Positions 3,433 to 56,839 of a stretch of 64,000 nucleotides of DNA are shown here, in pieces (the stretch's first letter is position 1; every line of letters starts with the position of its first letter). Origin of the DNA: Alphaproteobacteria bacterium (GTDB lineage Bacteria; Pseudomonadota; Alphaproteobacteria; Bin95); NCBI GenBank assembly GCA_965202745.1, contig CBDBCB010000021.1:326295-390294 (forward strand). The letters run 5' to 3'. The position numbers and the translations under genes were made by a program. The notes beneath the pieces are model-generated. The model worked only from the letters and a program-made list of their open reading frames with translations, was not told where the DNA came from and searched no databases.

Positions 3433-3923
3433 TGTTCCATTCCGGCTGATCAGATAGCCCCTCGTCGCTCTGCGTTTTTCATGGCACGCTGTGTTTTGAC
3501 CGAGGCGCGGGATGGGAGAGCGACATGGTGATCAAGCTTCACAGTCAGGCGACGACGCCACCGAAGATCAGGGCGGCCATACAGGCCAGTGACGACCCTG
3601 CGTGGGTTCTTGCCGAGCGTCACGGGACCACGGAACAGACCGTATGGAAATGGCACCAGCGTGCCAGCGTGGAGGATCGCAGCCACACGCCCCATCGCCT
3701 TCAGACGACGTTGACGCCAGCGCAGGAAGCTGTCGCGGTGGCCTTCCGCAAGACGCTTTTGGTCTCGCTGGATGATCTGCTGGCGGTGGTGTGCGAGTTC
3801 TTGAACCCGAAGGCCTCCCGCTCTGGCCTTGACCGCTGCTTGCGTCGGCATGGCGTGGGGCCCTGCGCACCCTGAAAGCATCATCGCCCCGGCCAAAGCA
3901 CAGCGCCTTCAAAGCCTATGAAC
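3433..3923 (+). mobile_element. IS481-family element copy 1, 5' fragment only, cut by IS256 copy A
   Basis: The left end TGTTCCATTCCGGCTGATCAGATAGCCCCTCG matches the ends at about 56530 and 63220. It carries the first ~116 codons of the transposase (3525-3875) and is preceded by CTTAGT. Confidence 0.85.
3525..3875 (+). pseudogene. IS481-family transposase N-terminal fragment
   Basis: MVIKLHSQATTPPKIRAAIQASDDPAWVLAERHGTTEQTVWKW... is identical in pattern to the ORFs at 55581-56450 and 62706-63128. Confidence 0.8.
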
Positions 3924-5296
3924 CGAGCTATGGCGAAAGTTGGTGACGGCTTGATCAGGCGGCGTTTTGCATTTGTTTGATCCCGTCGATGAATGCAATG
4001 CCCTGGATTATCCCAGGCATGCGATTTGCGCCGTCGCGCTTTCGCCATTTGCCCTGCGCTGACATCAGGAGCCTGACCGCCATGGCGAGGGCGGTCTTTC
4101 GGCTCAGACAGCCTTTGGTTTTACCTGTCCGGTGACACACCGTCGCGAAGGCGCTTTCGATGGGATGGGTGGTTCTGATGTGTTTCCACTGTTCTGCCGG
4201 GAAATCATAGAAGGCCAGCAGCACGTCACGGTCTTTGATCCATTTGGCTACCGCTTGTTCGTCTTTCACGCCGTAGGTCTCGATGAAGAAATCGCAGGCC
4301 GCCATGGCTTCGGCCTTCGTCTCTGCCTGCCAGATGTCGTGCAGGGGGCCTTTGGCTTTCGCTTGCACCGATTGGGGCATTGCCTTCAGCCCATTGCCGG
4401 TTTTATGGAACCAGCAGCGCTGTTCTGCGGTCGCGCCGAAGACCGCGCGAAGGGCGGCCCAGAAGCCCAGTGCACCGTCGCCTACCGCGAGATCGGGCGC
4501 GTGATTGAGGCCGCGCCGCTTGAGGTCGAGCAGGAGCGCGCGCCAGCTTTGGGTCCTTTCGCGATAGCCGTCGATCAGCCCCAGTATCTCCTTTCGGCCC
4601 CATTCATCCGCGCCGATCAGCACCAGAACACATTGCTTTTCTTCCATCCTTGGCTGGAAATAGACGCCATCCGCCCAGACATAGACGATGCGCCGGGCGC
4701 TGAGATCGCGCTTCTGCCAGCGGTCGTACTCCTCCCACCAATCGGACTTCAGCCGCGAGATGGTGGGGGACGACAGGCCCGCCGCGTTCGGCCCGAGCAG
4801 CGCGGCCAAGGCCGCCTGAAAATCGCCCGTGGAAATGCCGTTGAGGGAAAGCCAGGGCAGCAAGTCCTCGACGGACTTCGCCTTGCGCAGATACGGTGGC
4901 AGGATCGAAGAAGAGAACCGACCCTTCTCAGCCTGCCGATCACGATCCCGCCCGCGTGGCCCTTTCACGGGCACTGGGCCAATCCCGGTCATTCCCTCTC
5001 GTTCTGGCAGGTGAGCGTGACGAACGACCCGCGCGGGCCCCTCGGGCGTCGTCTCATTGGAAAATGGCGCAAGCCATGCGCTCCACTCAGCTTCAAGCGC
5101 TTGCTCGATCAACTGCCGCGCCCCGGAACGGATCAAATCCGTCAGCGGATCGGCGGAAAATCCCTTGGGATGGGGCAACGCGGTGATGGTATCTCTCGTC
5201 ATGGGGCATAGCCTTTTCTCAGCGAGAATTGCGGCGCGGGAACAACGCCATGATATGCCGCCCCTCAGGAAAATCACCAACTGTCAGCTGTTTCTC
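3924..5296 (-). mobile_element. IS256-family insertion sequence copy A (1373 bp), no target-site duplication
   Basis: More than 99% identical to copy B (14150-15522). Ends GAGAAACAGCTGACAGTTGGTGA... / ...CACCAACTTTCGCCATAGCTC. Flanks are CTATGAAC and GGCGCATT. Confidence 0.9.
3955..5280 (-). CDS. IS256-family (mutator-type) transposase
   Basis: 441-aa ORF with a DDE region (VWADGVYF, CWFHKTGN, HPIESAF). It differs from copy B at two residues. Confidence 0.9.
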   Translation of the reverse strand: MVIFLRGGISWRCSRAAILAEKRLCPMTRDTITALPHPKGFSADPLTDLIRSGARQLIEQALEAEWSAWLAPFSNETTPEGPARVVRHAHLPEREGMTGIGPVPVKGPRGRDRDRQAEKGRFSSSILPPYLRKAKSVEDLLPWLSLNGISTGDFQAALAALLGPNAAGLSSPTISRLKSDWWEEYDRWQKRDLSARRIVYVWADGVYFQPRMEEKQCVLVLIGADEWGRKEILGLIDGYRERTQSWRALLLDLKRRGLNHAPDLAVGDGALGFWAALRAVFGATAEQRCWFHKTGNGLKAMPQSVQAKAKGPLHDIWQAETKAEAMAACDFFIETYGVKDEQAVAKWIKDRDVLLAFYDFPAEQWKHIRTTHPIESAFATVCHRTGKTKGCLSRKTALAMAVRLLMSAQGKWRKRDGANRMPGIIQGIAFIDGIKQMQNAA

Positions 5297-7045
5297 GGCG
5301 CATTGCTGGCGACTGGTGTCGCCTATGTGCTGCCTCCGGTTTACGAGTCGACGGCCAAAATTTTGGTCGAAAGCCCTAAAATTCCAACGTCACTGGCCCA
5401 GTCAACGGTGACTGTTTCTGCGTTGGAACGGCTGCAAACAATTCAACAGCGAATTCTGGCCCGGGAAAATGTTCTGGATGTTATTGAGCGTCTGAACCTG
5501 TTTGCCGACCAGCCGGAACTCACGCCGACAGAGAAAGTCGACCGGATCCGCGCCGGTACGAGAATTGACATTATTGCCTTCAATTCGGCGGCCGGACGGC
5601 GGGCATCCAGAAACGCGCCAGTCACCGTGTCATCCTTTACGATCACCTATCGCCCGCCGACCAAAGACATCACGGCGCGGGTGGCCAATGAACTCGTCAC
5701 CCGTGTGTTGGAGCTGAACCTTCAGGCGCGGTCCGATCAAGCGCAGCAGACCCATGACTTTTTTACCCAGGAAGTGGAGCGCTATGCTGCGGATTTGATC
5801 GCGATTGAAACGGAAATCGCGAACTACAAGAACCAGAACGAAGGTTCGGCCCCGAACACGTTGCAGTCACGGCAAGGTCTGTTGCAGGGCGTGATTGCCC
5901 AATTGTTCAACAACAAGCAGCAGCAGGAACAGTTGCAACAGCAATTGGCAACGCTCAAAGAGACGTTGCGTACCCTGCGATCCCTGCCGACGCCAACGCA
6001 GAACCTGACCCAGGAAGAGCGTCAGCTGGCGGCGTTGAAGGCACAATTAACGGTTGAAGAACCACTGCTGACCGACGCTCACCCGACCGTCAAACAGCTT
6101 CGCCAGCAGATCGCTGCTATGGAGAAAGTGGTGAGTGGAAGCGGCAGCCAGACTAACTCCTCCAGTTCGGCCCAGACGCTCCAGATCACCAACCTGGAAG
6201 GGCAGATCAAGCACCTGCAAGAGCAGGAGGCGCGGGATTCAGAGCGTAAGGTTAAACTCGAAGCATCCATTGCCGACACGCCACGCGTGGAAATGGCGAT
6301 GAATGCTTTCAATCGCCGCCATGATGATCTGCGCATCCGCTATCAGGCTGCAGTGAACAAGCAGGCCGCGGCGGCGACCGGCGAGAAGTTGGAACTGGAC
6401 CAGAAGGCAGAGCGCTTTGAGCTCATTGAGCAGGCGCGCATCCCTCTGGCTCCGGTGGCGCCGAAACGGACTTTGATCGCGGCCGGCGGGGCGTTTGTGG
6501 CGCTCGGCGCCGGGTTTGCGCTGGCCCTGTTGCTGGAGATCCTCAGCTCCGCTATTCGCACGAGCGCAGACCTTCAGCGCACAGTGCAGCTGCGCCCGAT
6601 GGTGATCGTCCCCTATATTTATACGCCAGCGGAACGTCAGAAGCGCCGGTTTGTGGAGGTGTTTGCAGTGCTTCTGTTCATCGTTGTTTTGCCAAGCTCA
6701 ATCTGGCTGGTGGACCAGTACGTCCTGCCGATTGAGAAGGTGTCAGAGACAGTCATGAAAAAAAACCGCGCTTCAAAAGGTTTGGCTTTCGATCAAAGCG
6801 CGCCTGATCTGAGGAGAGTAAGGTGGTTAAACGCCTTAAGGATGCCATCAACAAAGCGCGCGAGCGACGGGAAGCCGGCGTCAGTGCGCCTGTCGAACCA
6901 CCGCCGCCGGTCGGTGAAACAACCCAGTCTGCGAATGAGTTACGGGACGCTATGCTGGCGGCCGTATCCAAGGGGCCCGGCGGGGTGCCTGGTACCACAC
7001 GGCGCGTGGCGGTGGATGAGGAATGGGCTTCGCTGCCGCAGTTGA
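5255..7045 (+). CDS. polysaccharide chain-length determinant (Wzz/GumC/ExoP N-terminal domain family), 5' end replaced by IS256-derived codons
   Basis: TM1 (LFLGALLATGVAYVLPPVYESTAKILVESP), a long coiled-coil periplasmic domain, and TM2 (LIAAGGAFVALGAGFALALLLEIL). The first 14 codons, including the ATG, lie inside IS256 copy A. The 3' 222 bp overlap the next gene in another frame. Confidence 0.7.
   Translation: MPPLRKITNCQLFLGALLATGVAYVLPPVYESTAKILVESPKIPTSLAQSTVTVSALERLQTIQQRILARENVLDVIERLNLFADQPELTPTEKVDRIRAGTRIDIIAFNSAAGRRASRNAPVTVSSFTITYRPPTKDITARVANELVTRVLELNLQARSDQAQQTHDFFTQEVERYAADLIAIETEIANYKNQNEGSAPNTLQSRQGLLQGVIAQLFNNKQQQEQLQQQLATLKETLRTLRSLPTPTQNLTQEERQLAALKAQLTVEEPLLTDAHPTVKQLRQQIAAMEKVVSGSGSQTNSSSSAQTLQITNLEGQIKHLQEQEARDSERKVKLEASIADTPRVEMAMNAFNRRHDDLRIRYQAAVNKQAAAATGEKLELDQKAERFELIEQARIPLAPVAPKRTLIAAGGAFVALGAGFALALLLEILSSAIRTSADLQRTVQLRPMVIVPYIYTPAERQKRRFVEVFAVLLFIVVLPSSIWLVDQYVLPIEKVSETVMKKNRASKGLAFDQSAPDLRRVRWLNALRMPSTKRASDGKPASVRLSNHRRRSVKQPSLRMSYGTLCWRPYPRGPAGCLVPHGAWRWMRNGLRCRS
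6758..6765. repeat. A8 homopolymer tract in the 3' region of the Wzz-like ORF
   Basis: atgaaaaaaaaccgc read directly. Confidence 0.9.
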
Positions 7046-7722
7046 CCCTCAATCCGGCGCTGCTGGACCAGCACAGGATTGTTTCGTACCGCAAGTCGCA
7101 CCCGGCTCACCTGGGCTTCGACATGTTGCGCACACGGCTGCTGAATATTCTGCGCACCAACGGATGGAACCGCCTGGCGATTACCTCGCCGACGAAAAAT
7201 TGCGGCAAGACGATGGTGGGCTTGAACTTGGCACTGTCTCTCGGCCATCAAAATGACTTGCGATCCATGTTCTTGGATATGGATATGCGTTCGCCGACAG
7301 CGGCCAAGTATCTGGATGTCCGGGAGAAAATCTCCATAGCAGACTTTCTGCAGGGCACCTTGGAACCTGACCAGTTTCTGCGGCGTGCCGACTCCAATCT
7401 GGCGTTTGGCTTGAACACAGAGTATGTTCCGGTGCCGGCGGAATTGCTCCATCACGAACGGACCAAGGCTGTGTTGGCATCGACCCTGACCCGCTACCGG
7501 CCCAATGTGGTGGTCTATGATCTGCCGCCGGTTCTGGTGAGCGACGATGTCATGGCGTTTCTGCCCCACGTTGACTGTGTGATGATGGTTGCCTCTGCAG
7601 GGCGCACCAAGCCCAAGGAAATCCGCGAAGCCGAGCAGATTCTGGGCGATCAGACGAACTTCCTGAGCGTCATGTTGAACAAGTTCAAGGAAAAGACCGG
7701 ACACGGCCACTATTACCAATAG
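6823..7722 (+). CDS. BY-kinase/ExoP C-terminal-domain-like P-loop protein (degenerate Walker A)
   Basis: ITSPTKNCGKTMVGLNLALSLG is Walker-A-like, and VVVYDLPPVL... is Walker-B-like. It sits immediately after the Wzz-like gene. Confidence 0.65.
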   Translation: MVKRLKDAINKARERREAGVSAPVEPPPPVGETTQSANELRDAMLAAVSKGPGGVPGTTRRVAVDEEWASLPQLTLNPALLDQHRIVSYRKSHPAHLGFDMLRTRLLNILRTNGWNRLAITSPTKNCGKTMVGLNLALSLGHQNDLRSMFLDMDMRSPTAAKYLDVREKISIADFLQGTLEPDQFLRRADSNLAFGLNTEYVPVPAELLHHERTKAVLASTLTRYRPNVVVYDLPPVLVSDDVMAFLPHVDCVMMVASAGRTKPKEIREAEQILGDQTNFLSVMLNKFKEKTGHGHYYQ

Positions 7723-7816
7723 CGCCTGCCGCAGTTGGTGCCTGGCCGGTTTCCCCCTTGGTTCGGTGGCCAAATGGGGCGATCATGAATACCCGCACAA
7801 TCGGGCGTTATGTTGG

Positions 7817-7868
7817 TGGTTCGATGCAAACTGATGGGCACCATCCATTTGCATCGAACCACTAGGAG
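7817..7868 (+). promoter_or_regulatory. 14-bp-stem hairpin (TGGTTCGATGCAAA ... TTTGCATCGAACCA) whose 3' arm abuts the ggt Shine-Dalgarno sequence (AGGAGG)
   Basis: Read directly. The loop is 18 nt. A related 17-mer (ATGTTGGTGGTTCGATG) recurs at 35085-35101. Confidence 0.5.
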
Positions 7869-7871
7869 GTA

Positions 7872-9563
7872 TTGATGACGCGGCTCTGTATTGCCATCGC
7901 CGGACTGATTTTCGCCGTAGTCGTCGGGCTGAGTCAGGCTGGTCTTGCCTCGCGCATGGTGGTGACCGCTCACCCATTGGCGAGCCAAGCGGGGCTGGAA
8001 GTGTTGCAACGCGGTGGTTCTGCCATTGACGCTGCAGTGGCAGCCCAGATGGTTCTGACCTTGGTTGAGCCGCAGTCCAGCGGTATTGGCGGCGGCGCTT
8101 TCCTGCTGCATTACCAATCGGCCGATAAGCGGCTGCGTGCGTTTGACGGCCGGGAAACCGCGCCGTCCGCTGCTGGGGAAGGGTTATTTCTTCGCGTCGA
8201 TGGCCAGCCGATGAAATGTCAGCAAGCGCGGCAGGGCGGCCGTTCTGTGGGCGTGCCAGGCGTCGTGCGCATGTTGGCCTCGGCGCATCAGATTTATGGG
8301 AAACTGCCGTGGAGCAGTTTGTTCCAGCAAGCTATCGCTCTGGCAGAAAGCGGATTTCCGGTCCCTCAACGCTTGCATCAGGCGATAAGTAAGGTACCGG
8401 ACTGGTCACAACTGCCGACAGCCGCAGCCTATTTTCTGGATCCGGCGGGGGAGCCCTGGCCGGTAGGGCACCTTTTGAAAAACCCGGCCCTGGCGTCAAC
8501 ATTCCGCACGCTTGCCGTCAATCCGGACGGTCTGAACACTGGGCCAATCGCCGAAGCGATCGCCGCGGCTGTCACCGGCTATTCCGCAAATCCCGGCGTC
8601 ATGTCCGTAGCGGATTTGGCCGGGTATCAGCCCAAGGAACGCTTGCCGGTGTGCGGGCCTTATCTGGCCTTAACACTCTGCGGAATGCCGCCGCCATCTT
8701 CCGGCGGGCCGACCGTTTTGATGATCCTTGGGCTGGCTGAGCGTTTGGGCCTGCATCGCCTGACGCATACGTCGCCGGAATGGGCGCATCTGTTTGCAGA
8801 GGCGGGACGGGTGGCATTCGCCGACCGGAACCAGTACATGGCTGATCCTAACTATGTGCATCAACCGATTGTCGGCCTGTTGGACAAGACCTATCTGGAT
8901 GGCCGGGCCCGGATGATTTCTGCCGACAATGCGCTCGGCAAGGTACAAGCGGGTGTACCGTCGGAAAATCGGGGCGATGTTCTGGCACCGGACGCCGGAT
9001 TGACAGAGCGCGGTACCTCTCATCTGTCGATTGTTGATGGCGATGGCAATATTGTCTCGATGACGACGACCGTTGAGGCCTCCTTGGGCTCACGGTTGAT
9101 GGTCGGCGGCTTTATGCTGAACAACGAACTGACCGACTTCTCGTTCTCCCCGGAGAAAGATGGCAAGCCGGTTGCCAATCGTGTGGAACCGGGGAAGCGT
9201 CCGCGCAGTTCCATGGCGCCGATGATTGCGTTCGGTGCCGATGGCAGGCCCGTGCTGGTAGCAGGCTCGCCCGGTGGCTCCCGTATTATTGGCTATGTCG
9301 CGGCAGCCATGGCCAGGATCCTGGGGAATGGCGTGGACCCTCAAACGGCGGTTGAGGCTGGGCACGTTATCAACCGGAACACCGCAAAAACAGAAGTTGA
9401 GGAAGGGCCAGGCAGCACGTCGTTGGCTGATTCACTGGCCGTATTCGGTCACGATGTTAAGGTGCGGGAGCTGACCAGCGGTCTGCATTTAATCCAGATT
9501 ACGCCAGAAGGCTTGGTCCCCGGCGTTGACCCCCGCCGGGAAGGCCTGGCCGCAGGAGATTAA
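7872..9563 (+). CDS. ggt: gamma-glutamyltranspeptidase
   Basis: 563 aa with a signal peptide, the autoprocessing Thr motif TSHLSIVDGDGNIVSMTTTVE, and GGxRI near the C-terminus. Confidence 0.9.
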   Translation: MMTRLCIAIAGLIFAVVVGLSQAGLASRMVVTAHPLASQAGLEVLQRGGSAIDAAVAAQMVLTLVEPQSSGIGGGAFLLHYQSADKRLRAFDGRETAPSAAGEGLFLRVDGQPMKCQQARQGGRSVGVPGVVRMLASAHQIYGKLPWSSLFQQAIALAESGFPVPQRLHQAISKVPDWSQLPTAAAYFLDPAGEPWPVGHLLKNPALASTFRTLAVNPDGLNTGPIAEAIAAAVTGYSANPGVMSVADLAGYQPKERLPVCGPYLALTLCGMPPPSSGGPTVLMILGLAERLGLHRLTHTSPEWAHLFAEAGRVAFADRNQYMADPNYVHQPIVGLLDKTYLDGRARMISADNALGKVQAGVPSENRGDVLAPDAGLTERGTSHLSIVDGDGNIVSMTTTVEASLGSRLMVGGFMLNNELTDFSFSPEKDGKPVANRVEPGKRPRSSMAPMIAFGADGRPVLVAGSPGGSRIIGYVAAAMARILGNGVDPQTAVEAGHVINRNTAKTEVEEGPGSTSLADSLAVFGHDVKVRELTSGLHLIQITPEGLVPGVDPRREGLAAGD

Positions 9564-9566
9564 TCA

Positions 9567-10631
9567 ATGAAGTTCGGTTGGCTGACGCTGGCGTTGTCTC
9601 CCTCCCCGGAAGAGGACGCGCAACGGATTGACGATCAGATTGCCCAGGTGTGCCTGGCCGAGAAGCTGGGCTTTCACGATGTCTGGCTGACGGAGCACTA
9701 TTTTACGGGCGAGAGCGTCTACAACGACGCCATTCTGTTTGCCAGCGCGCTTGCCATGCGGACGGAGCGGATACGGTTGGGGTTTGCGGTCGTGCAGATG
9801 CCGTTCCATCACCCGGTACGGCTCGCGACGCAATTGGCGCTGTTGGATAATCTGTCGAAAGGCCGGATCGATGTTGGTATCGGCAAGGGGACCGTGTTCA
9901 ACGAGTACGAATTTGTCGGCCACGGTCTGCGCTCCGATGATGGGCGGGAGCGCATGGAGGAGGGGCTCGACCTGTTGCAACGCGCCTGGACGGAAGCGCC
10001 GCTGAAGTTTGAGGGCCGGTTCCATCAGGTGGAGGTGCCGCAAATCCGCCCGCGCCCGGTGCAGCAACCGCACCCGCCGCTGTGGCGGAGTGTGATTTCG
10101 CCCGATTCGTTTGTGGAATGCGGGCGGCTGGGCATTCCCATTCTGACGGCGCGCTTGCCGGTCGATAAAATCGTGGAGCGCTGGGCTATGTATGAGCAGG
10201 GCCTGGATGAAGGCGGGCATGATCAGGCGACGCGCGAGCGTTTGCTGGCGCAGAGCGCGCTCTGGCGCAACGTGTATGTGGCGGAAAGCGATGCCCAGGC
10301 GGAGGACGAGCTGTCTGGCCTGCTGCTAGAGACACGCCATCACATGATGCATGTTCGCGATCAATATAACCCGCAGGACTTTACACCCGACCCCGTGACG
10401 ATGAATGCCTGGACCGATCCCGGCGTGAGTGACGCGGAGGCCATACCGTTTGTTCTGGAAACCGGCTCGATCTATGGCTCACCCGCGACGGTGGCCGAAC
10501 AGGTGGCGGCGTTGGGTCAGGCAGGCGTGCAGCATCTGCTTTGCCAGACGGGCTTTGGCGACATGAGCCAGGAACAGACGGTGGCATCCATGCGCCTGCT
10601 CGGTGAGCAGGTGATGCCGAAGTTTGTGTAG
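9567..10631 (+). CDS. LLM-class (luciferase-like) flavin-dependent oxidoreductase
   Basis: 354 aa. The N-terminus MKFGWLTLALSP...LGFHDVWLTEHYF is typical of the bacterial luciferase-like fold. Confidence 0.85.
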   Translation: MKFGWLTLALSPSPEEDAQRIDDQIAQVCLAEKLGFHDVWLTEHYFTGESVYNDAILFASALAMRTERIRLGFAVVQMPFHHPVRLATQLALLDNLSKGRIDVGIGKGTVFNEYEFVGHGLRSDDGRERMEEGLDLLQRAWTEAPLKFEGRFHQVEVPQIRPRPVQQPHPPLWRSVISPDSFVECGRLGIPILTARLPVDKIVERWAMYEQGLDEGGHDQATRERLLAQSALWRNVYVAESDAQAEDELSGLLLETRHHMMHVRDQYNPQDFTPDPVTMNAWTDPGVSDAEAIPFVLETGSIYGSPATVAEQVAALGQAGVQHLLCQTGFGDMSQEQTVASMRLLGEQVMPKFV

Positions 10632-10660
10632 GGCGCGCAGGTGATCCCCTGCCGTTGGTA

Positions 10661-11911
10661 TTACGCCTTCGCCATGGCTTCCCAATCGATGGGCTGGTAG
10701 CGGTCGATCTGGGCTGAAACGGCGGGCATTTCGTATTTCAGGCCTGTGGCGCAGTTGAACAATACGCAGCTTTCGTCGACCCTGATCCGGCCATCGGCGC
10801 GGGCGGCTTTGTAGGCGGCGTAGGTCGCCGCGCCTTCCGGGCAGAGCAGCAGGCCCTCATCGCGGGCAACTTCTTCCTGGCTGGCTTGGATGACGTCATC
10901 GTCCACGGCAATCGCAAAGCCGTTGCTTTCGCGGACGGCATCCAGGATGAGGAAATCGCCGACTGCCTGGGGCACGCGCACGCCATAGGCGATGGTCTTG
11001 GCGTTTTTCCAGCGGGTGGCGTGGCGCTCGCCTGCTTCATAGGCACGGACCATGGGGGCGCAGCCTGCGGCTTGCACCGCAACCATGCGCGGACGCTTCG
11101 AGCCGATCAGGCCGATGGCTTCCAGCTCGTCAAAGGCTTTCCACATGCCGATCAGGCCGGTGCCGCCGCCGGTTGGATACAGTATGACGTCGGGCACGTT
11201 CCAGCCGAGCTGTTCGGCTAGTTCGATGCCCATGGTTTTCTTGCCCTCGATCCGGTAGGGCTCCTTCAGCGTGGAGGTGTCGAACCAGCCCATGGGTTTC
11301 TTGCCTTCGCCGACGATCTTGCCGCAATCGTCGATATAGCCGTTAACCTTCCAGACTTTCGCCCCCTGAAGTGCTATTTCGCGCACGTTGATGTCGGGCG
11401 TGTCTTCCGGGCAGAAGATGTATGCCTCCATGCCCGCGCGGCGGCAGTAGGCAGCCATGGCTGCGCCGGCGTTGCCGTTGGTCGGCATGGCCAGACGTTT
11501 GATACCCAGTTCTTTGGCCATCGATACGGCCATGATCAGACCGCGTGCCTTGAATGAACCGGTCGGCAGGCGGCCTTCGTCTTTCACAATAATCGGGGCG
11601 GACGCTCCGTTGTTCCGCTCTACCGCAGGCAAGCGGACAAACGGTGTCATGACTTCGCCCAGCGTGATGACGTTCTCGGTCCGGCGCACGGGCAGCAATT
11701 CCCGGTAGCGCCACATGGTCGGTGCGCGGGTCGCCAGCACGTCCTTGGTCAGCTTTTTGGCAACGCCTTCCAGGTCATAGCGCACCAGCAGCGGCTTGCC
11801 CGCCTTCGAGATATTGTGAAGCGTGTCGGCCTCGTACCGGTCGCCCTCGTAGGCGCATTCCAGGTGTGTGACGAAGGTCTCAGTATCGGGAATGCCGTGC
11901 GGGTCGATCAT
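10661..11911 (-). CDS. thrC: threonine synthase-like PLP-dependent enzyme (ThrC family)
   Basis: 416 aa with the PLP-lysine motif PTGSFKARG, a glycine loop YPTGGGTG, and a Cys-containing N-terminal domain as in short-type threonine synthases. A housekeeping role is not proven. Confidence 0.75.
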   Translation of the reverse strand: MIDPHGIPDTETFVTHLECAYEGDRYEADTLHNISKAGKPLLVRYDLEGVAKKLTKDVLATRAPTMWRYRELLPVRRTENVITLGEVMTPFVRLPAVERNNGASAPIIVKDEGRLPTGSFKARGLIMAVSMAKELGIKRLAMPTNGNAGAAMAAYCRRAGMEAYIFCPEDTPDINVREIALQGAKVWKVNGYIDDCGKIVGEGKKPMGWFDTSTLKEPYRIEGKKTMGIELAEQLGWNVPDVILYPTGGGTGLIGMWKAFDELEAIGLIGSKRPRMVAVQAAGCAPMVRAYEAGERHATRWKNAKTIAYGVRVPQAVGDFLILDAVRESNGFAIAVDDDVIQASQEEVARDEGLLLCPEGAATYAAYKAARADGRIRVDESCVLFNCATGLKYEMPAVSAQIDRYQPIDWEAMAKA

Positions 11912-11974
11912 TGGAAGCCTCTGGGTTAGGGTGGTCGCTCAGAGCATAGACCGTTTGCCAAGAGAGACCAGCCC

Positions 11975-13447
11975 ATGCGACTCGCCATCGCCGGATTTGC
12001 GCTTGAAAGCGTTACCTTTCTGCCGGAACAGACGGATATTCCGGACTTTGAGCGCGGTGCGCAGAGAGGCGCGGCCCTGGTCAGAGTGCGAACGGGCACC
12101 AATACCTCGGTCGGCGGCTTCCTGAAGGTCTGTGCAGCGGAGGGGATTGAGCCGGTCGGGCTGGTCGATGCCGGCGCGGGCGCGGCTGCCTCTGCCAGTG
12201 AGGCGGCGTTCTACCAATATGTGGGAGAGATTGTGGCGGGCCTCGCCGCTGTCAAAGACACGGTGGACGGCCTGCTGCTGCATCTGCATGGCGCGCTGGC
12301 GACTCCGTCGCGGCGGAACGCGGATGCCCAGGTATTGCAGGCGATCCGGGTGGAGGTTGGCCCGGATTTTCCTATCGCCGTGGCCTTTGATCTGCACGGC
12401 AATATCGGGCGGGATGTGGTGGACGCAGCGACGGTGCTGGCTGGCTATCACTACTCACCACATACCGACATGGCGGTGACAGGGGAGCGGGCGGCGCGGA
12501 TGCTGGTCGCGCACATGAAGCAGGGCAGGGGGCTTGCCATGGGCTACGGACGGCCTGGCATTATCCTGCCCAGCATCTTTTCCGCTACGTGTTTGGAGCC
12601 GCTGGCAACCCTGATGCAGCACGCCCGCGACCTGGAGATGCATACGCCGGGCGTTCTTGATATCTCGATTTTCTGCGGGTTCGCTTACGCCGATGTGCCG
12701 GACTGCGGCATGAGCGTGGTGGTGGTGACCGATGGTGACGAGGGCCTGGCGCAGCGCATGGCAGAGCGGCTGGCAGGACTGGCCGCGGACTGGCGGGCGG
12801 TGCTGTTCCGGCGGGAATTGGTGCTGGATGTGGCGGCGGGGGTCGACCAGGCGTTGGCGATGGCCAAGACAGCAGACAAGCCGGTCTGCCTGCTGGATCA
12901 CGCCGACCGCCTGAACGATTCGACCTATACGCTGCGGGAGCTGCTGGCGCGGGGCAGCGGGGCGAAGGTCTTTGCACCGTTCATGTTCGACCCCGAAAGT
13001 GCGGCGGCCTGCGTTGAAGCCGGCACGGGGGCGACAGTGCTATTGCAGCTTTGCGGCAAGTCCTCGCCACAGGCAGGCGGGCCGTTGGCCGTGGCGGCGA
13101 AGGTTGTATGGGCTGGCGAAAAGGTAATTACGGTGACCGGGCCGCTCTACACTGGCGTAGAATTCAAGCTCGGCAACAGCGCGGTGCTGGACCTGGGCGG
13201 CGGGGTGATGGTCTCGCTGATTTCCATCCAATGGAGCGCCATCGACCGGGATTGCTTCGATCAGTTCGGTCTGGTGCCGGAGGATTTCGATGTGATCCTG
13301 CTGCGGAGCAAGACCCACTTCCGGCATGTCTACACGCCGATGTGCGAGGATATTCTGATTGTCGATACACCAGACTGGGGCCCGGCGGATGTCACCACCT
13401 TGCCCTATGAGTATGCAGACCGGGGCAGTTTTCCGTTTGTGCTGTAG
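11975..13447 (+). CDS. M81-family metallopeptidase (microcystinase MlrC-like; DUF1485 + MlrC_C architecture)
   Basis: 490 aa. N-terminus MRLAIAGFALESVTFLPE.... Overall match to the MlrC family from memory of the family pattern. Confidence 0.8.
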   Translation: MRLAIAGFALESVTFLPEQTDIPDFERGAQRGAALVRVRTGTNTSVGGFLKVCAAEGIEPVGLVDAGAGAAASASEAAFYQYVGEIVAGLAAVKDTVDGLLLHLHGALATPSRRNADAQVLQAIRVEVGPDFPIAVAFDLHGNIGRDVVDAATVLAGYHYSPHTDMAVTGERAARMLVAHMKQGRGLAMGYGRPGIILPSIFSATCLEPLATLMQHARDLEMHTPGVLDISIFCGFAYADVPDCGMSVVVVTDGDEGLAQRMAERLAGLAADWRAVLFRRELVLDVAAGVDQALAMAKTADKPVCLLDHADRLNDSTYTLRELLARGSGAKVFAPFMFDPESAAACVEAGTGATVLLQLCGKSSPQAGGPLAVAAKVVWAGEKVITVTGPLYTGVEFKLGNSAVLDLGGGVMVSLISIQWSAIDRDCFDQFGLVPEDFDVILLRSKTHFRHVYTPMCEDILIVDTPDWGPADVTTLPYEYADRGSFPFVL

Positions 13448-13483
13448 CCCTGCCGTATTGAACAACGCGCCTGAAAGGGAGGC

Positions 13484-14227
13484 TTGCCCATGACCTATTC
13501 CATTGTCGCCCGTGACCCGGAAACCGGCCATTTGGGGATCGCGGTGGCTAGCCGCTACTTCGCGGTCGGGGCGATTGTGCCCTATGTCCGCGGCGGTATA
13601 GGTGCGATTGCCTCACAGGCGTTTCCCAATCCCACTTTTGGAACGGACGGGCTGTGGTTGATGGAAACCAGGATGGCGCCCGAAAATATCGTAACCGCCT
13701 TCCTTGAGAGGGATAACGGCCATAATAACCGCCAGTTTCATATGATTGACGCCGCGGGCCGGGGCGCGGCTTTCACGGGCTTGAACTGTGTGGACTGGGC
13801 CGGGCACGTGAGCGCCGATGGTGTGTCGGTTGCAGGCAATATGCTGGAAGGCCCCCTGGTGGTGGAAGACACCCTTCGCGCCTACCAGGCAGCGATGGAC
13901 ACGCCCTTCATAGAACGCCTGCTGATTGCGATGCAGGCGGGCGAGGATGCGGGCGGCGACAAGCGGGGCAAACAGTCGGCGGCGCTGGTGGTCTATCGCG
14001 ACCAGAACTATCCGTGGCTGAACATCCGCTCCGATGATCATGGCGACCCGCTGTCCGAATTGCGCCGTCTCTATGCGGTGGCCCAGGAACGCTACCTGCC
14101 CATGGCAGAGATCATGCCGACACGCGAGAACCCGCACGGGCTCACCGACGAGAAACAGCTGACAGTTGGTGATTTTCCTGAGGGGCGGCATATCATGGCG
14201 TTGTTCCCGCGCCGCAATTCTCGCTGA
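13484..14227 (+). CDS. DUF1028-family (Ntn-hydrolase-fold) protein, 3' end interrupted by IS256 copy B
   Basis: MTYSIVARDPETGHLGIAVASRYFAVGA.... The last 26 codons, including the stop, are IS-derived. The native C-terminus (RSGIDAEIARLEEARLARGEASASFMRNKA*) resumes in frame at 15531. Confidence 0.7.
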   Translation: MPMTYSIVARDPETGHLGIAVASRYFAVGAIVPYVRGGIGAIASQAFPNPTFGTDGLWLMETRMAPENIVTAFLERDNGHNNRQFHMIDAAGRGAAFTGLNCVDWAGHVSADGVSVAGNMLEGPLVVEDTLRAYQAAMDTPFIERLLIAMQAGEDAGGDKRGKQSAALVVYRDQNYPWLNIRSDDHGDPLSELRRLYAVAQERYLPMAEIMPTRENPHGLTDEKQLTVGDFPEGRHIMALFPRRNSR

Positions 14228-15522
14228 GAAAAGGCTATGCCTCATGACGAGAGATACCATCACCGCGTTGCCCCATCCCAAGGGATTTTCCGCCGATCCG
14301 CTGACGGATTTGATCCGTTCCGGGGCGCGGCAGTTGATCGAGCAAGCGCTTGAAGCTGAGTGGAGCGCATGGCTTGCGCCATTTTCCAATGAGACGACGC
14401 CCGAGGGGCCCGCGCGGGTCGTTCGTCACGCTCACCTGCCAGAACGAGAGGGAATGACCGGGATTGGCCCAGTGCCCGTGAAAGGGCCACGCGGGCGGGA
14501 TCGTGATCGGCAGGCTGAGAAGGGTCGGTTCTCTTCTTCGATCCTGCCACCGTATCTGCGCAAGGCGAAGTCCGTCGAGGACTTGCTGCCCTGGCTTTCC
14601 CTCAACGGCATTTCCACGGGCGATTTTCAGGCGGCCTTGGCCGCGCTGCTCGGGCCGAACGCGGCGGGCCTGTCGTCCCCCACCATCTCGCGGCTGAAGT
14701 CCGATTGGTGGGAGGAGTACGACCGCTGGCAGAAGCGCGATCTCAGCGCCCGGCGCATCGTCTATGTCTGGGCGGATGGCGTCTATTTCCAGCCAAGGAT
14801 GGAAGAAAAGCAATGTGTTCTGGTGCTGATCGGCGCGGATGAATGGGGCCGAAAGGAGATACTGGGGCTGATCGACGGCTATCGCGAAAGGACCCAAAGC
14901 TGGCGCGCGCTCCTGCTCGACCTCAAGCGGCGCGGCCTCAATCACGCGCCCGATCTCGCGGTAGGCGACGGTGCACTGGGCTTCTGGGCCGCCCTTCGCG
15001 CGGTCTTCGGCGCGACCGCAGAACAGCGCTGCTGGTTCCATAAAACCGGCAATGGGCTGAAGGCAATGCCCCAATCGGTGCAAGCGAAAGCCAAAGGCCC
15101 CCTGCACGACATCTGGCAGGCAGAGACGAAGGCCGAAGCCATGGCGGCCTGCGATTTCTTCATCGAGACCTACGGCGTGAAAGACGAACAAGCGGTAGCC
15201 AAATGGATCAAAGACCGTGACGTGCTGCTGGCCTTCTATGATTTCCCGGCAGAACAGTGGAAACACATCAGAACCACCCATCCCATCGAAAGCGCCTTCG
15301 CGACGGTGCGCCACCGGACAGGTAAAACCAAAGGCTGTCTGAGCCGAAAGACCGCCCTCGCCATGGCGGTCAGGCTCCTGATGTCAGCGCAGGGCAAATG
15401 GCGAAAGCGCGACGGCGCAAATCGCATGCCTGGGATAATCCAGGGCATTGCATTCATCGACGGGATCAAACAAATGCAAAACGCCGCCTGATCAAGCCGT
15501 CACCAACTTTCGCCATAGCTCA
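14150..15522 (+). mobile_element. IS256-family insertion sequence copy B, flanked by an 8-bp target-site duplication TCACCGAC (14142-14149 and 15523-15530)
   Basis: Same ends as copy A. A perfect 8-bp direct repeat sits on both sides, as expected for IS256-family transposition. Confidence 0.9.
14166..15491 (+). CDS. IS256-family transposase
   Basis: 441-aa ORF, near-identical to the ORF at 3955-5280. Confidence 0.9.
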   Translation: MVIFLRGGISWRCSRAAILAEKRLCLMTRDTITALPHPKGFSADPLTDLIRSGARQLIEQALEAEWSAWLAPFSNETTPEGPARVVRHAHLPEREGMTGIGPVPVKGPRGRDRDRQAEKGRFSSSILPPYLRKAKSVEDLLPWLSLNGISTGDFQAALAALLGPNAAGLSSPTISRLKSDWWEEYDRWQKRDLSARRIVYVWADGVYFQPRMEEKQCVLVLIGADEWGRKEILGLIDGYRERTQSWRALLLDLKRRGLNHAPDLAVGDGALGFWAALRAVFGATAEQRCWFHKTGNGLKAMPQSVQAKAKGPLHDIWQAETKAEAMAACDFFIETYGVKDEQAVAKWIKDRDVLLAFYDFPAEQWKHIRTTHPIESAFATVRHRTGKTKGCLSRKTALAMAVRLLMSAQGKWRKRDGANRMPGIIQGIAFIDGIKQMQNAA

Positions 15523-15740
15523 TCACCGACCGCAGTGGCATTGACGCTGAGATCGCCCGGTTGGAGGAGGCACGGTTGGCCCGGGGGGAGGCGAGTGCTT
15601 CGTTCATGCGGAACAAGGCCTAACCGGGAGGCAAACCGGCCGCCGATGGCTTAATTTTGGTAGAATTACGACCATTTATGATTGTGGAATGGTTCGGGCG
15701 CGAACAGAGCATCAGTTGGTTAATGAATGGAGTGCCTGAC

Positions 15741-16944: not shown

Positions 16945-17712
16945 CTATTTGATGCCGTCTTTGTACGCATTCAGTTGCGCCTGCGCACCGGCAACCATGC
17001 AAGCCGTATCAGAGGTCAGCATGACCATGTCAAAGCCGCGCTTGATAGCGCCGGCGGCAAAGGCACCGCTGCCGCAATGCATAACCGCCTTGATGCCATG
17101 CTTGTGCGCGGTGGCCAGGATCTTGTCGCAGGTCTCTATATGCAGCGGGTCCGGGTTGTCGCCGCGCGGCGCAAGGCCCAGGGCATAGGACAGATCGGCT
17201 GGGCCGATATAGACCGCGTCAACGCCAGGGGTGGCGCAAATCTCTTCTAGGTTCTCAAGGCCTTCCTTGGTTTCGATCATCACCATCATGATGATCTCGT
17301 TATTGGCGGCTTCCTGATAGCCGGGTCCACCATATTGCGCCGCGCGGAAGGGGCCGGAGGAGCGCACGCCATCGGGCGGATAGCGGCAGGCATCAACGGC
17401 GGCTGCAGCTTCCTCGGCATTGTTCACCAGCGGCACGATGACGCCGTAGGCACCGATGTCCAGCGCCCGCATGATGGAGGCTTTGTCATTCCATTTGACA
17501 CGCACAAACGGCGCGGTGTCGGTTTGCGAGATCGCCTGCAGCAGGGGCAGAACGTGGCTCATTTCGTTGGTGCCGTGCTGCAGGTCAACGCACAGGGAAT
17601 CGAAGCCCTGACGCGCCATCATCTCGGCGGTAAAGCTGTGGGAAATGGAGATCCAACCCATGGTCGCCGGTTTGCCGTCGCGCCACATCTGCTTAATTTT
17701 GTTAGGCCGCAT
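16945..17712 (-). CDS. HpcH/HpaI-family aldolase (2-keto-3-deoxy-acid aldolase / citrate-lyase-beta-like)
   Basis: 255-aa TIM-barrel aldolase pattern (GVIVPLVNNAEEA, MIETKEGLENLEEI, AVYIGPADLS). Confidence 0.85.
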   Translation of the reverse strand: MRPNKIKQMWRDGKPATMGWISISHSFTAEMMARQGFDSLCVDLQHGTNEMSHVLPLLQAISQTDTAPFVRVKWNDKASIMRALDIGAYGVIVPLVNNAEEAAAAVDACRYPPDGVRSSGPFRAAQYGGPGYQEAANNEIIMMVMIETKEGLENLEEICATPGVDAVYIGPADLSYALGLAPRGDNPDPLHIETCDKILATAHKHGIKAVMHCGSGAFAAGAIKRGFDMVMLTSDTACMVAGAQAQLNAYKDGIK

Positions 17713-17882
17713 GGTATTACCTTCAATGGTTTATGTAGGGGATAGCGGCTCCGTTTGCGCTCTGGCAGGCAAACGGACCGCCGATCCGGCAAGATGGGTA
17801 ACTTGGCTTTTTATGGCGAAGCGGTCGAGCTCCTATCGACATGGGGCCTGACGATCGGGACCAGAGGCAGAGATACCGTAGC

Positions 17883-20030
17883 TTAGCCCTTTGCGCCGTA
17901 GCGCATCCGCAAGGCGTTTGCCGTTACCAGAATGGACGATGTCGACATGGCGATTGCTGCCAGCATCGGCGTCACGAATCCGGCAACTGCCAACGGCACG
18001 CTGACGGTGTTGTAGAAGGCGGCCAGGCCAAAATTCTCCAATACCCTCCGCTTTGCTGCCCTGGCGACGTACAGGGCCTCCGAAACGGCGTTCAGCGAGT
18101 CGCCCTGGAACACCATGTCGGCGGCATTCTGCGAAATGTCGGCAGCGGTTGCAGGAGACATGGAGGCATGAGCGGCGGCTAGCGCCGGGGCGTCGTTCAG
18201 GCCATCGCCTACCATCAGCACACGCTGCCCGCCGGCTTGCAGGGCTTCCAGGCGGACGATCTTGTCCTTTGGGCTTAGACCGGCCTCTGCGTCAGTAATG
18301 CCGAGTTTGGCCGCCACCGCTTCGACCGGGCCAGCCTCATCACCGGATAGCAGCGTCACTTGGCAGCCGTGCCGCTTGATCCAGGCAATGGCTTCGGCAG
18401 CATCTGGCCGCAGGCTGTCGTTGAAGTGGAACGCCGTTGGAGTCATGCCTGGGCCGGACAACCAGACGGTGGTTGCAGTTTGGGCTTCGGTCGTCTCAAC
18501 GCCACACCACTTGGCGGAGCCGAGCTTAAAGCCATCCGCCATAGTACCGGAGCCGGGCACTTCCTCCGCGCTGTCAGCAATGGCAGGGGCTGCGCCGAAA
18601 CGCTCCTTCGCTGCCAGCACAATGGCTTGGGAGAGCGGATGACGGTTGGCACCGGCGATGCTTGCAGCCAGGCGCAGAGTGTCATCGGCGATCCCGTCAG
18701 CGCCTTCTACCCTGGGCTTGCCGATTGTCAGTGTGCCGGTCTTGTCGAACACCACATGATTGATCTCTGCAAAACGTTCCAGGGCCGCCCCGCTCTTCAT
18801 CAGCACCCCGTTGCGCAGCAGGCGTCTGGCAGCAACAACCTGCACGGCGGGCACGGCCAAGCCCAGCGCGCAGGGGCAGGTGATGATAAGGACCGCGATG
18901 GCCGTCAGCAGTGATTGCTCGACCCCGGCCCCGGCAAGCATCCAGCCTATAAATGTCAGCGCTCCCAGACCGTGGACCAGCGGCGCATAGATCTTGGCTG
19001 CCCGGTCCGCAAGGCGCACGAAGCGATCACGGCCCTGCTGGGCATTCTCCATCAGCCGGGCGATGTCGGCCAGCAGGCTGTCGTCCGCCATGGCGATGGC
19101 GTTCAGCTCTATCGCGGAGCCGAGGTTGATGCAGCCGACATAGACGGTGTCGCCCGCGTCCACGGTGCGTGGCAGAGACTCGCCAGTGATCAGGCTGGTG
19201 TCCAGCTGGGCGCTCCGCCCAAGAATCCGGCCATCCACGGGCACTTTCTCGCCGCTGGCCACCAGGACCCGGTCGCCGACCGCGACCTCATTGGTGGAGA
19301 CACGGCGGTGGGCGCCGGAATCGGGATCGACGATAGTGGCCTCACTGGCGGCAAAGGCCAGCAGGTTTCCTGCGGCCTCTCGCGCTTTGCCCCGCATGCG
19401 GGCGTCCAGAAAGCGGCCAATCAGCAGGAAGAGCAGCAGCGAAACCGCGGCGTCGAAATAGACCTCGTCCGCATTGCTCCAGGTTTGCCAAACGCTCATG
19501 CCGGTCGCCAGCAGCACCGCCAGGCTGATCGGCACGTCCATGTTGACCCGCCAGACCTTCAGCGCGGTCCAGGCGGAGCGGAAGAAGGGGCGTCCGGCAT
19601 AGGTGACGGCGGGCAAGGCGATGGCAGCCGCCAGCCAGTGGAACAGCGAGCGCGTTTCGGCATCCATGTCCTGGACGAGCCCGGCCCACACCGCCACCAT
19701 CAACAGCATGATGTTCGCGGCTGCAAAGCCTGCCACACCAAGGCATTTCAGAAGAAAGCGCTGGTCCTGATCGGCTGCATTCAGGCTGCCATCAAAGCGG
19801 GCTGCCTCAAATCCGGCGTTGGCCAGCGCGCCGACTACTTGCGGCAGGTCAATTGTTCTGGGATCAAAGCGCACCCGGACGCGCTTGGTCGTCAGGTTCG
19901 CCCGTGCTTCCGCTATACCCTTTGTGTCGGCAAGTGCCTGCTCGATCCCCCGCACACACCCGCCGCAATGCATGTTGGAGACGGAAAGAACCGCCTCATC
20001 AAATCCATCCAGAGTTAGCGATTTGGCCAT
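17883..20030 (-). CDS. heavy-metal (Cu+)-translocating P1B-type ATPase
   Basis: N-terminal HMA domain MHCGGC, TM CPC motif (ITCPCALGLAVP), the phosphorylation site DKTGTLT, and the hinge VGDGLNDAPAL. Confidence 0.9.
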   Translation of the reverse strand: MAKSLTLDGFDEAVLSVSNMHCGGCVRGIEQALADTKGIAEARANLTTKRVRVRFDPRTIDLPQVVGALANAGFEAARFDGSLNAADQDQRFLLKCLGVAGFAAANIMLLMVAVWAGLVQDMDAETRSLFHWLAAAIALPAVTYAGRPFFRSAWTALKVWRVNMDVPISLAVLLATGMSVWQTWSNADEVYFDAAVSLLLFLLIGRFLDARMRGKAREAAGNLLAFAASEATIVDPDSGAHRRVSTNEVAVGDRVLVASGEKVPVDGRILGRSAQLDTSLITGESLPRTVDAGDTVYVGCINLGSAIELNAIAMADDSLLADIARLMENAQQGRDRFVRLADRAAKIYAPLVHGLGALTFIGWMLAGAGVEQSLLTAIAVLIITCPCALGLAVPAVQVVAARRLLRNGVLMKSGAALERFAEINHVVFDKTGTLTIGKPRVEGADGIADDTLRLAASIAGANRHPLSQAIVLAAKERFGAAPAIADSAEEVPGSGTMADGFKLGSAKWCGVETTEAQTATTVWLSGPGMTPTAFHFNDSLRPDAAEAIAWIKRHGCQVTLLSGDEAGPVEAVAAKLGITDAEAGLSPKDKIVRLEALQAGGQRVLMVGDGLNDAPALAAAHASMSPATAADISQNAADMVFQGDSLNAVSEALYVARAAKRRVLENFGLAAFYNTVSVPLAVAGFVTPMLAAIAMSTSSILVTANALRMRYGAKG

Positions 20031-41514: not shown

Positions 41515-41657
41515 CCGAAAGTTTTGGGAAGCTCGAGGTCTCTCCCTCCCCTCCTCTGCTGAAGTTGCACAAAAAACGGCTCAAAGGAGCCGAATGCTAT
41601 TCAGGCACAGATGGAAAAGATTGAGGCTCAGCTAAAAGAAGTAGCTAGTGGCTACGA

Positions 41658-42975: not shown

Positions 42976-43096
42976 CAGAATTTTGCTTTCTTCCCGCTTT
43001 ACAGCAATCTCCAAGCGGGCTTTGGCCCGGTGAAAATTCGCATTTTCAGGGCTGCTTGAAAGTGCCTCGTCCATATGTTGCAAAGCGGTGGGCAGC

Positions 43097-43190
43097 AAGA
43101 CGCCCTTGCAGGCAATGAAGGGATGGCGCAAACTCAAACTAGAGCTGGTCAGGAAACAGCCATATTACCTTCCAGGATGTGATAGCTATC
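43097..43190 (+). mobile_element. IS481-family 3'-terminal remnant (~90 bp)
   Basis: GGCAGCAAGACGCCCTTGCAGGCAATGAAGGGATGGCG(C/A)AAACTCAAACTAGAGCTGGTCAGGAAACAGCCATATTACCTTCCAGGATG matches the end of copy 3 (62191-62260 plus 60920-60953). Confidence 0.7.
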
Positions 43191-56530: not shown

Positions 56531-56839
56531 CGGGATGGAACAGATAGAAGGCCAGGCCGGTTGGCAAAGCCGGCAGCCAAATGGCCAGTTGCTCGCCCCA
56601 CCCCATGACGCCAGCGGCCACACTTGGCATCATCCGGACAACATGCTGTTTGCGGTCGTCAAATTCGGCTCATCCGCAGTGAGTGGCCAGCCGCTGGAGA
56701 CCAGCATGCCCATGTTCAACGACATACTGGGCGACCAGGAGATCGCCGCAGTGCTGGCCTATATAAAAAGCACCTGGCCAACGGAAATTCGCGCAAAGCA
56801 TGACGCCTTGAATGAGCGCATGCCCCAAACGGGAAAATG
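56531..56839 (+). pseudogene. C-terminal fragment of a c-type cytochrome gene, cut by IS481 copy 2
   Basis: Ends ...MFNDILGDQEIAAVLAYIKSTWP..., the typical C-terminus of a class I cytochrome c. The reading frame continues into the IS end. Confidence 0.55.

Follow-up and report, generated by a model that had tools for sequence, protein, structure and literature searches.

Two inverted copies of an IS256-family element in an alphaproteobacterial contig: a simple insertion in a DUF1028 gene and a probable deletion junction at a Wzz-like gene

The stretch of DNA analyzed here (the window, 64 kb in length) carries two copies of an IS256-family insertion sequence, A and B, which are mutually inverted and bracket an 8.85-kb segment that begins with a truncated Wzz-like gene and ends in a DUF1028 gene (Table 1). 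Copy A abuts an IS481-like fragment on its left, and the genes found to the left of that fragment are a TauD-like gene and a GMC oxidoreductase gene.

Table 1. Coordinates of the features at the locus, as positions in the window.
Feature	Position	Strand	Details
IS481-like fragment	3433..3924	+	Left end TGTTCCAT... and first ~130-133 transposase codons kept
IS256-family copy A	3925..5296	-	1372 bp; transposase CDS 3955-5202 (minus); no target duplication
Ends of copy A	3925; 5296		Right-type end (IRR) at 3925; left-type end (IRL) at 5296
XrtA-type polysaccharide chain-length determinant gene (Wzz-like), 5'-truncated	5297..6812	+	Begins at native codon 28
XrtA-associated type tyrosine autokinase-like gene (BY-kinase-like)	6823..7722	+	TIGR03018, TIGR01007
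Gamma-glutamyltransferase gene	7872-9563	+	Pfam/NCBIfam
Luciferase-like monooxygenase gene	9567-10631	+	Pfam/NCBIfam
Threonine-synthase family gene	10661-11911	-	Pfam/NCBIfam
M81/MlrC-like peptidase gene	11975-13447	+	Pfam/NCBIfam
DUF1028 gene, first 220 codons	13490..14149	+	PF06267, 233 bits
Target duplication, left copy CTCACCGAC	14141..14149	.	9-bp length inferred from related copies
IS256-family copy B	14150..15521	+	1372 bp; transposase CDS 14244-15491; simple insertion
Target duplication, right copy ATCACCGAC	15522..15530	.	First base unlike left copy
DUF1028 gene, last 30 codons and stop	15531..15623	+	Continues the frame of 13490-14149 if B and one repeat are taken out

To describe the two copies more precisely, we compared them base by base. 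Positions 14149-15521 are the reverse complement of 3925-5297 but for three mismatches (4135, 4137 and 5204), and each copy holds a single, intact 441-codon open reading frame, with the two 415-aa transposases differing by one residue. The transposase matched PF00872 (Mutator-type DDE) at 161 bits (cut-off 21) and NF033543 at 270.8 bits (cut-off 150), which bears out a preliminary description of A and B as near-identical, inverted IS256 copies. The bounds given there, 3924-5296 and 14150-15522, were each one base off: positions 5296 and 14150 hold, whereas base 3924 belongs to the IS481-like sequence, and an extra A at 15522 separates the IS end of copy B from the exact 8-bp repeat to its right. 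The length of 1372 bp falls within the ~1.2-1.5 kb range of the IS256 family, and the terminal inverted repeats are imperfect as in that family (GAGAAACAGCTGACAGTTGGTGA versus GAGCTATGGC-GAAAGTTGGTGA, 17/23 matching with one gap), the ends being backed by related copies. At its two ends the element reads GAG...CTC, and related copies finish ...GCTC. A left end placed one base further out, at the C that precedes GAGAAA in A, B and L004, was rejected, since all four bases occur at this position in ten related copies and the 9-bp duplications of related copies abut GAG directly.

The transposase of copy A is identical to a protein (P0248) present on 4 contigs of the source assembly, and at least 43 distinct transposase variants of the element were found on at least 12 contigs, apparently all from this one assembly. 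This genome has seen a recent expansion of the element, of which the window contains two copies. Its nearest relatives outside the source assembly are metagenome proteins with 84% identity, the closest named relative has 79%, and the element itself appears to be undescribed.

Copy B interrupts the DUF1028 gene. The annotated DUF1028 product enters the IS, gains a 25-aa IS-derived tail and ends at 14227, and the protein collection contains exactly this 245-aa truncated product (P0001). When B and one copy of the flanking repeat are excised, a 250-aa DUF1028 protein is rebuilt, with 100% coverage of more than 100 homologues (249-255 aa), and a homologue with 84% identity (P0002) reads ...NPHGLTDRSGIDAEIARMEE through the junction. 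The C-terminus resumes in frame after the second repeat, as had been described, and comparison of the 3' end with homologues, which had been suggested at the same time, gave a match to the rebuilt protein from end to end. Copy B is a simple insertion by paste-in, in agreement with the earlier reading. An exact 8-bp repeat, TCACCGAC, is indeed found at 14142-14149 and 15523-15530, and a duplication of 8-9 bp is that of the IS256 family. However, related elements (79% aa identity) made exact 9-bp duplications directly abutting GAG...CTC in 4/4 clean cases, so the duplication at B, first described as a perfect 8 bp, is probably one of 9 bp, CTCACCGAC/ATCACCGAC, in which 8/9 positions match. An ordinary paste-in integration, with this target duplication, severed the last 30 codons of the DUF1028 gene.

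Copy A is flanked differently. Its neighboring sequences, CTATGAACC and GGCGCATTG, match at 1/9 positions and form no target duplication, as the preliminary description had noted. An inversion between A and B was considered as the cause of this lost duplication and was rejected: the flanks of B match each other, and no cross-combination of flanks does. On the left side, the window offers two further IS481-like copies for comparison (56547->55692 and 63225->~62357), with which the fragment shares 97-98% identity. The similarity breaks off precisely at 3924, where the other two copies go on with CGGTTCCATCC, the continuation of the element beyond the cut reading CGGTTCCATCCCCATCGACC...; the cut, placed earlier after codon ~130 of the transposase, falls at codon ~130-133. 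The fragment is degenerate, with a 1-bp deletion that leads to a stop at 3875. Its best NCBIfam match was NF033577 (IS481), which scored 53 bits with the fragment and 181 bits with the longest copy (copy 1), both below the cut-off of 224 bits. These copies are degenerate, and an rve domain was found in copy 1.

On the right side of copy A, the alignment of the Wzz-like gene with TIGR03007 begins at profile position 26, and similarity to three related genomes (L001-L003) starts exactly at 5297, which corresponds to codon 28 of the orthologues. In L001-L003 the orthologues begin 81 bp further upstream, with MEQSLDIxKYIDGxRRRLWIVALVFIP/GALLATG (the slash marking the start of similarity), so the gene in the window is short of exactly 27 native codons. 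A possible hybrid start is offered by an ATG that lies in frame within the IS, at 5255, and would place 14 IS-derived codons ahead of the native part. Of the proposal that this gene had lost its native 5' end and now starts on IS codons, for which a comparison with relatives had been recommended, the loss is upheld by these data. At 153.8 bits the gene scored below the TIGR03007 cut-off of 278.85, and the intact orthologue of L001 reached only 202; it is related to TIGR03007 and lies in an XrtD locus context, yet it is no equivalog of this family. Near its 3' end, the A-run at 6758-6765 is one A too long, which puts the last ~15 codons out of frame, and the open frame extends to 7045. The BY-kinase-like gene that follows scored 93.7 bits with TIGR03018 and 70 bits with TIGR01007, each under its cut-off, and is 63-75% identical to the syntenic gene of L001-L003.

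We also considered whether the IS end might have rescued the Wzz-like gene. According to this idea, the 14 codons supplied by the IS (MPPLRKITNCQLFL) and the adjoining GALLATGVAYVL together rebuild a charged-then-hydrophobic signal anchor, read-out from the IS drives an exosortase-independent determinant-kinase-ggt operon, and the inverted pair turns the 8.85-kb block into an invertible or mobile cassette. A promoter scan of positions 5000-5400 on both strands detected no sigma-70-like site, so read-out transcription into the Wzz-like gene is unsupported, and we hold this scenario as a whole to be highly improbable.

Directly upstream of the determinant gene, L001-L003 carry an exosortase gene, assigned to XrtD (TIGR04152) at 652 bits, and a PEP-CTERM ATPase gene. 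Neither gene was found in the 64-kb window, and none of the best 120 XrtD homologues (>=54% identity) lay on a contig recognized as belonging to the source assembly; this search covered XrtD, in an assembly that may be an incomplete metagenome-assembled genome. For the source lineage, what preceded the determinant gene is deduced from relatives that are only 67-75% identical. Downstream, L001 and L003 share the order and orientation of the metabolic genes at 7872..13447, whose products are 68-91% identical (aa), and from the Wzz-like to the MlrC-like gene the order is IS-free in these two relatives, the ones whose sequence reaches that far; the contig of L002 stops after the monooxygenase gene and conserves the order up to that point. 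The TauD-like and GMC oxidoreductase genes had no related counterpart in the 10 kb that precede the locus in the relatives.

The sequences abutting copy A on both sides are truncated and no duplication is present, the pattern by which an IS-associated deletion junction is recognized. Because the duplication is lacking, the IS481-like element is cut, the Wzz-like gene has lost its 5' end and the upstream genes are absent from the window, we interpret copy A as a rearrangement junction, most likely one left by a deletion. One route to it would involve two insertions. A first IS copy would have entered the IS481-like element at CTATGAACC, and a second copy in the same orientation would have entered the determinant gene at codon 27/28, at GGCGCATTG. 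Homologous recombination between the two would then delete the intervening DNA and leave a single IS with unrelated flanks, the deleted span holding the rest of the IS481-like element, the genes for XrtD and the PEP-CTERM ATPase, and 27 codons from the start of the determinant gene. Deletions and inversions with crossovers in IS256 copies have been described (PMC5065196), and in the metagenome contig L006 a related element has its left flank from one insertion site and its right flank from another. We favor recombination, since the many variants of this IS in the source assembly would provide many partners, and we give homologous recombination with deletion a chance slightly below even.

The preliminary description had instead ascribed the junction to an IS256-mediated adjacent deletion. 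The scar, the truncated flanks and the missing upstream DNA all agree with that proposal, whereas a transpositional origin is not established. Here, the attack would have come from either a single resident copy or a tandem IS dimer whose IRL-IRR junction is active, and would have struck a nearby site in the same molecule. The DNA between would be lost, one IS end retaining its original flank and the other being joined to new sequence. Such an event would produce the same scar, starting exactly at the IS end and lacking a duplication; the element is evidently active in this genome, dimer IR-IR junctions of IS30 yield deletions from the edge of the inverted repeat (PMC9333248), and IS256 is listed among the dimer-forming elements (PMC9333248). 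However, IS256-family elements move by copy-out/paste-in (PMC7780238), with circles of abutted ends known for IS256 and ISCth4 (PMC7780238), and this mode normally spares the donor site (PMC7780238, PMC3299598), so the rarer dimer route would be needed. Neither a tandem dimer nor an IR-IR junction was found in the window, and with dozens of homologous copies recombination requires no special intermediate. We regard a deletion made by the transposase as rather unlikely, and recombination between directly oriented copies, which leaves the same scar, as at least as likely. Judged from the sequence, the scar would look identical after RecA-type recombination and after transposase action, with no feature to separate them.

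It is also conceivable that no DNA was lost at all. Copy A may have undergone recombination with an oppositely oriented copy far away (an inversion) or have taken part in a translocation, and the exosortase genes together with the 5' part of the determinant gene would then adjoin another copy outside the window. The visible stretch is just 64 kb, IS256 copies have driven megabase inversions (PMC5065196), and the TauD-like and GMC genes, being unrelated to the 10 kb upstream in the relatives, fit a long-range join. We nevertheless think such an event improbable, as no XrtD attributable to the source was present among the best 120 matches, and copy B, with its clean duplication, was not the partner when all flank combinations were tested. 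Even less probable is an assembly artefact, in which two unrelated regions were joined at a 1.37-kb repeat present in dozens of copies. The copy number of this repeat is very high, the frameshift at 6758-6765 is of the homopolymer type and hints at long reads prone to error, and the hybrid flanks in the L006 contig might themselves be such a collapse. Against this, contigs of 0.1-0.8 Mb with many internal IS copies imply reads that exceed the length of the IS, and a misjoin would leave the remaining exosortase locus elsewhere in the assembly, where it was not detected (XrtD, best 120 matches).

The loss would leave the determinant and kinase genes without their native start, promoter and partner genes, and the locus is probably decaying. 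The genome bears several signs of decay: some IS elements are nested, the IS481-like copies are degenerate and genes are frameshifted. In this uncultured alphaproteobacterium, an expanding IS is dismantling both a DUF1028 gene and a locus for surface polysaccharide and exosortase functions. For annotation, the Wzz-like and DUF1028 genes should be flagged as disrupted, and the case offers an example of how comparative synteny can be used in support of a deletion scar.

The 11.6-kb unit formed by A, the 8.85-kb segment and B had been proposed as a potential composite transposon. Its two IS copies are intact, inverted and identical at their outer ends. Tn4001 is built from inverted IS256 copies, and the present arrangement resembles a composite of that type in that two inverted intact copies flank a multi-gene segment. 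The inverted-pair structure is therefore formally present. Unlike Tn4001, however, there is no duplication around the unit (the outer flanks, CTATGAACC versus ATCACCGAC, match at 2/9 positions), and the copies arrived separately, B having its own duplication in a gene that is restored by excising B alone. The cargo is native chromosomal synteny: L001 and L003 have its genes from the determinant to the MlrC-like gene in this order without an IS, and L002 agrees up to the monooxygenase gene. When the 8.85-kb segment and the IS were searched against plasmids, distant matches only were returned (<=81% identity), and hence no sign of the unit on plasmids or elsewhere. That the unit arrived, or moves, as one piece is in our view extremely improbable. 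A and B can act as inversion substrates for the 8.85-kb segment and, in principle, as a Tn4001-like composite, although neither event is evidenced.

Together, copies A and B represent ordinary insertion-sequence biology and reveal no new mechanism. As in the dimer deletions of the IS30 model (PMC9333248), the endpoint at A lies exactly at an IS end, although, unlike in that model, no dimer or IR-IR junction is seen here. The IS256 recombination described in S. aureus OC8 (PMC5065196) shares with copy A a single copy without duplication that joins non-neighboring sequences in a many-copy genome, but differs in that one junction alone is visible here; the L006 element has the same kind of scar as copy A. 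Like IS256 of Staphylococcus, ISCth4 and the Rhodobacterales/Marinovum algicola elements (79% aa identity), the IS studied here is ~1.37 kb long and encodes a single Mutator-type DDE transposase, and it has in common with these relatives imperfect terminal inverted repeats, 8-9 bp duplications, many genomic copies and the disruption of genes. Whereas IS256 and ISCth4 use AT-rich 8-bp sites, this IS is marked by GAG...CTC ends with a AAGTTGGTGA core and by a 9-bp duplication.

Within the first 20 kb of the window, a repeat search recovered just one pair of long inverted repeats, namely copy A (minus strand) and copy B (plus strand). When compared base by base, the reverse complement of 14149-15521 matched 3925-5297 with three mismatches (4135, 4137, and 5204). 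Each copy carries an intact 441-codon open frame, and the two transposases (415 aa) differ by one residue. The transposase matched Pfam PF00872 (Mutator-family transposase; 161 bits) and NCBIfam NF033543 (IS256 family transposase; 270.8 bits, cut-off 150), in line with the preliminary description of two near-identical inverted IS256 copies. Element ends and duplication size were set by comparison with related copies from other sources, which encode transposases of 83% identity (two metagenome contigs, L004 and L005) or 79% identity (Marinovum algicola and other Rhodobacterales, L006-L015). GAG...CTC ends are conserved across these copies and are abutted by an exact 9-bp direct repeat in four clean insertions (L008, L010, L011, and L015). 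Base 3924 lies outside A and is still IS481-like. The element is apparently an undescribed member of the IS256 family. A second IS256-family element, outside the repeat pair and unrelated to A/B at the DNA level, has inverted repeats agreeing at 21/24 positions and a transposase (41715-42923) matching NF033543 at 332 bits.

Insertion sequences and target duplications in the window
Feature	Position	Length	Remark
Copy A	3925-5296	1372 bp	Ends by GAG...CTC of related copies
Copy B	14150-15521	1372 bp	Ends by GAG...CTC of related copies
B target duplication, left copy	14141-14149		CTCACCGAC
B target duplication, right copy	15522-15530		ATCACCGAC
Second IS256-family element	41656-42975
IS481-like remnant	43084-43188		3' end only
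IS481-like copy 1	55692-56547		3'-truncated
IS481-like copy 2	~60916-63225		Full length, small indels
IS3-family element in copy 2	about 60954-62190		Ends TGA...TCA; transposase 60988-61644

The exact 8-bp repeat TCACCGAC previously seen around B is present (chance of such a match at the right positions, about 1.5e-5), but the full duplication is better read as 9 bp, because the exact 9-bp repeats of related elements touch GAG...CTC; the base A at 15522 is then better read as its first, mutated base. A 250-aa DUF1028 protein was rebuilt by fusing the 220 codons of 13490-14149 with the 30 codons and stop of 15531-15623, and its entire length (100%) is aligned by over 100 homologues, themselves 249-255 aa long. 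P0002, the nearest homologue from other sources at 84% identity, runs ...TRENPHGLTDRSGIDAEIARMEE... uninterrupted over the B junction. In the disrupted gene, the product is cut short by 30 residues and ends instead in 25 residues read from the IS; this same truncated protein, tail included, is in the protein collection (P0001, from a 648,794-bp contig). With its own duplication, and with full-length DUF1028 restored on its removal, B is a simple insertion, as had been proposed.

No duplication surrounds copy A, the 9 bp on each side agreeing at one of nine positions. On the left, two further IS481-like copies in the window match 3433-3924 at 97-98% identity, and the match ends exactly at 3924, where the sister copies go on with CGGTTCCATCC..., in agreement with the cut IS481 copy reported. 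These two copies are oriented in the same direction. Copy 1 continues into a DHDPS-like ORF, and copy 2 holds a nested IS3-family element; the uninterrupted target of that insertion is seen in a fourth IS481-like remnant, separated by about 110 bp from where the second IS256-family element ends. A GMC oxidoreductase gene (1358-2970) is split into two overlapping ORFs (N-domain, 1358-2674; C-domain, 2671-2970), a split that probably reflects either a frameshift in a pseudogene or an error in sequencing.

On the right, A abuts the chain-length-determinant gene, which we compared with three uncultured Alphaproteobacteria/Rhodospirillales (L001-L003) from a scan of species-representative genomes. 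L001 and L003 share the order determinant, kinase, gamma-glutamyltransferase, luciferase-like monooxygenase, threonine-synthase family (opposite strand), and M81/MlrC-like peptidase, and L002 does so until its contig stops after the monooxygenase gene. The window has the same order at 68-91% identity, with similarity beginning exactly at 5297. L001 has an extra 423-aa ORF (16959-18230) between the last two genes. None of the relatives has DUF1028 after the MlrC-like gene, and this adjacency is therefore specific to the window's lineage. The determinant orthologues (67-75% identical) all start 81 bp ahead of the base aligned with 5297, with the N-terminus MEQSLDIxKYIDGxRRRLWIVALVFIP, then GALLATG..., and the TIGR03007 match to the window's protein begins only at profile position 26. 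Thus, 27 native codons have been lost, and the gene does not naturally begin at 5255, so the refuting case proposed beforehand does not hold. Judged from sequence, copy A joins a truncated element to a truncated gene.

The genes directly upstream of the determinant in L001 encode a VPLPA-CTERM exosortase, XrtD (TIGR04152, 652 bits; cut-off 400), and an XrtA/PEP-CTERM-associated ATPase (TIGR03015); neither was found anywhere in the 64-kb window. Real loss is favored indirectly: among the best 120 XrtD homologues, which reach down to 54% identity, none lies on a contig of a length listed, in an incomplete set, for the source assembly, where an orthologue should show about 75% identity. That assembly may itself be incomplete. 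Besides its upstream partners, the determinant gene lacks its start and a portion of the first membrane helix. With the ATG at 5255 as start, 14 codons from the IS would be added, together with a moderately hydrophobic segment; a promoter scan of 5000-5400 found no promoter-like site. Downstream, a run of eight A's (6758-6765), one more than in all three relatives, puts the final ~15 codons out of frame, so that the native stop (6810-6812) is passed and the open frame overlaps the kinase gene up to 7045. The extra A reflects either a further lesion or a sequencing error in the homopolymer.

Truncated flanks, the lack of a duplication, and the missing upstream genes make a deletion the most likely reading of A; whether IS256 itself made the deletion is not separable from recombination by sequence. 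Transposition of IS256-family elements is copy-out/paste-in by way of circles (PMC7780238; PMC3299598), a route that by itself does not delete donor-side DNA. Homologous recombination between two directly oriented IS copies, well documented for IS256 (PMC5065196), would leave the A scar. Alternatively, a tandem IS dimer might attack a nearby target through its IR-IR junction, giving a deletion that starts at the IS end, as in IS30, and IS256 forms such dimers (PMC9333248); this route is the less likely of the two, with no dimer junction in the window. We tentatively favor recombination because of that absence, at least 43 distinct transposase variants, and a hybrid-flank copy of the related element in L006. 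The variants, in 99%-identity clusters P0121 and P0122, lie on contigs of at least 12 lengths (77 kb to 822 kb) of apparently one assembly, include truncated forms (116-364 aa) and a 612-aa fusion, and indicate a large recent IS expansion. The L006 copy, on a metagenome contig, joins the L010-site left flank to the L008-site right flank; it represents a collapse in assembly or else a recombinant lacking a duplication. For A itself, an assembly misjoin through the repeat is very improbable. No combination of A flanks with B flanks matched, excluding an A-B inversion as the origin of the junction; inversion or translocation with an IS copy outside the window is a rather improbable source.

Together, A and B represent a well-understood kind of event. 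The suggested composite transposon, taken as a past event, is contradicted: B has a duplication of its own, in a gene that is made whole again when only B is taken out, the outer flanks of the whole A-B unit agree at only 2/9, and the intervening segment is native, conserved synteny. Inversion of this 8.85-kb segment by A-B recombination is the more likely future event. In arrangement, the pair resembles Tn4001, being inverted with the right-type ends outermost.
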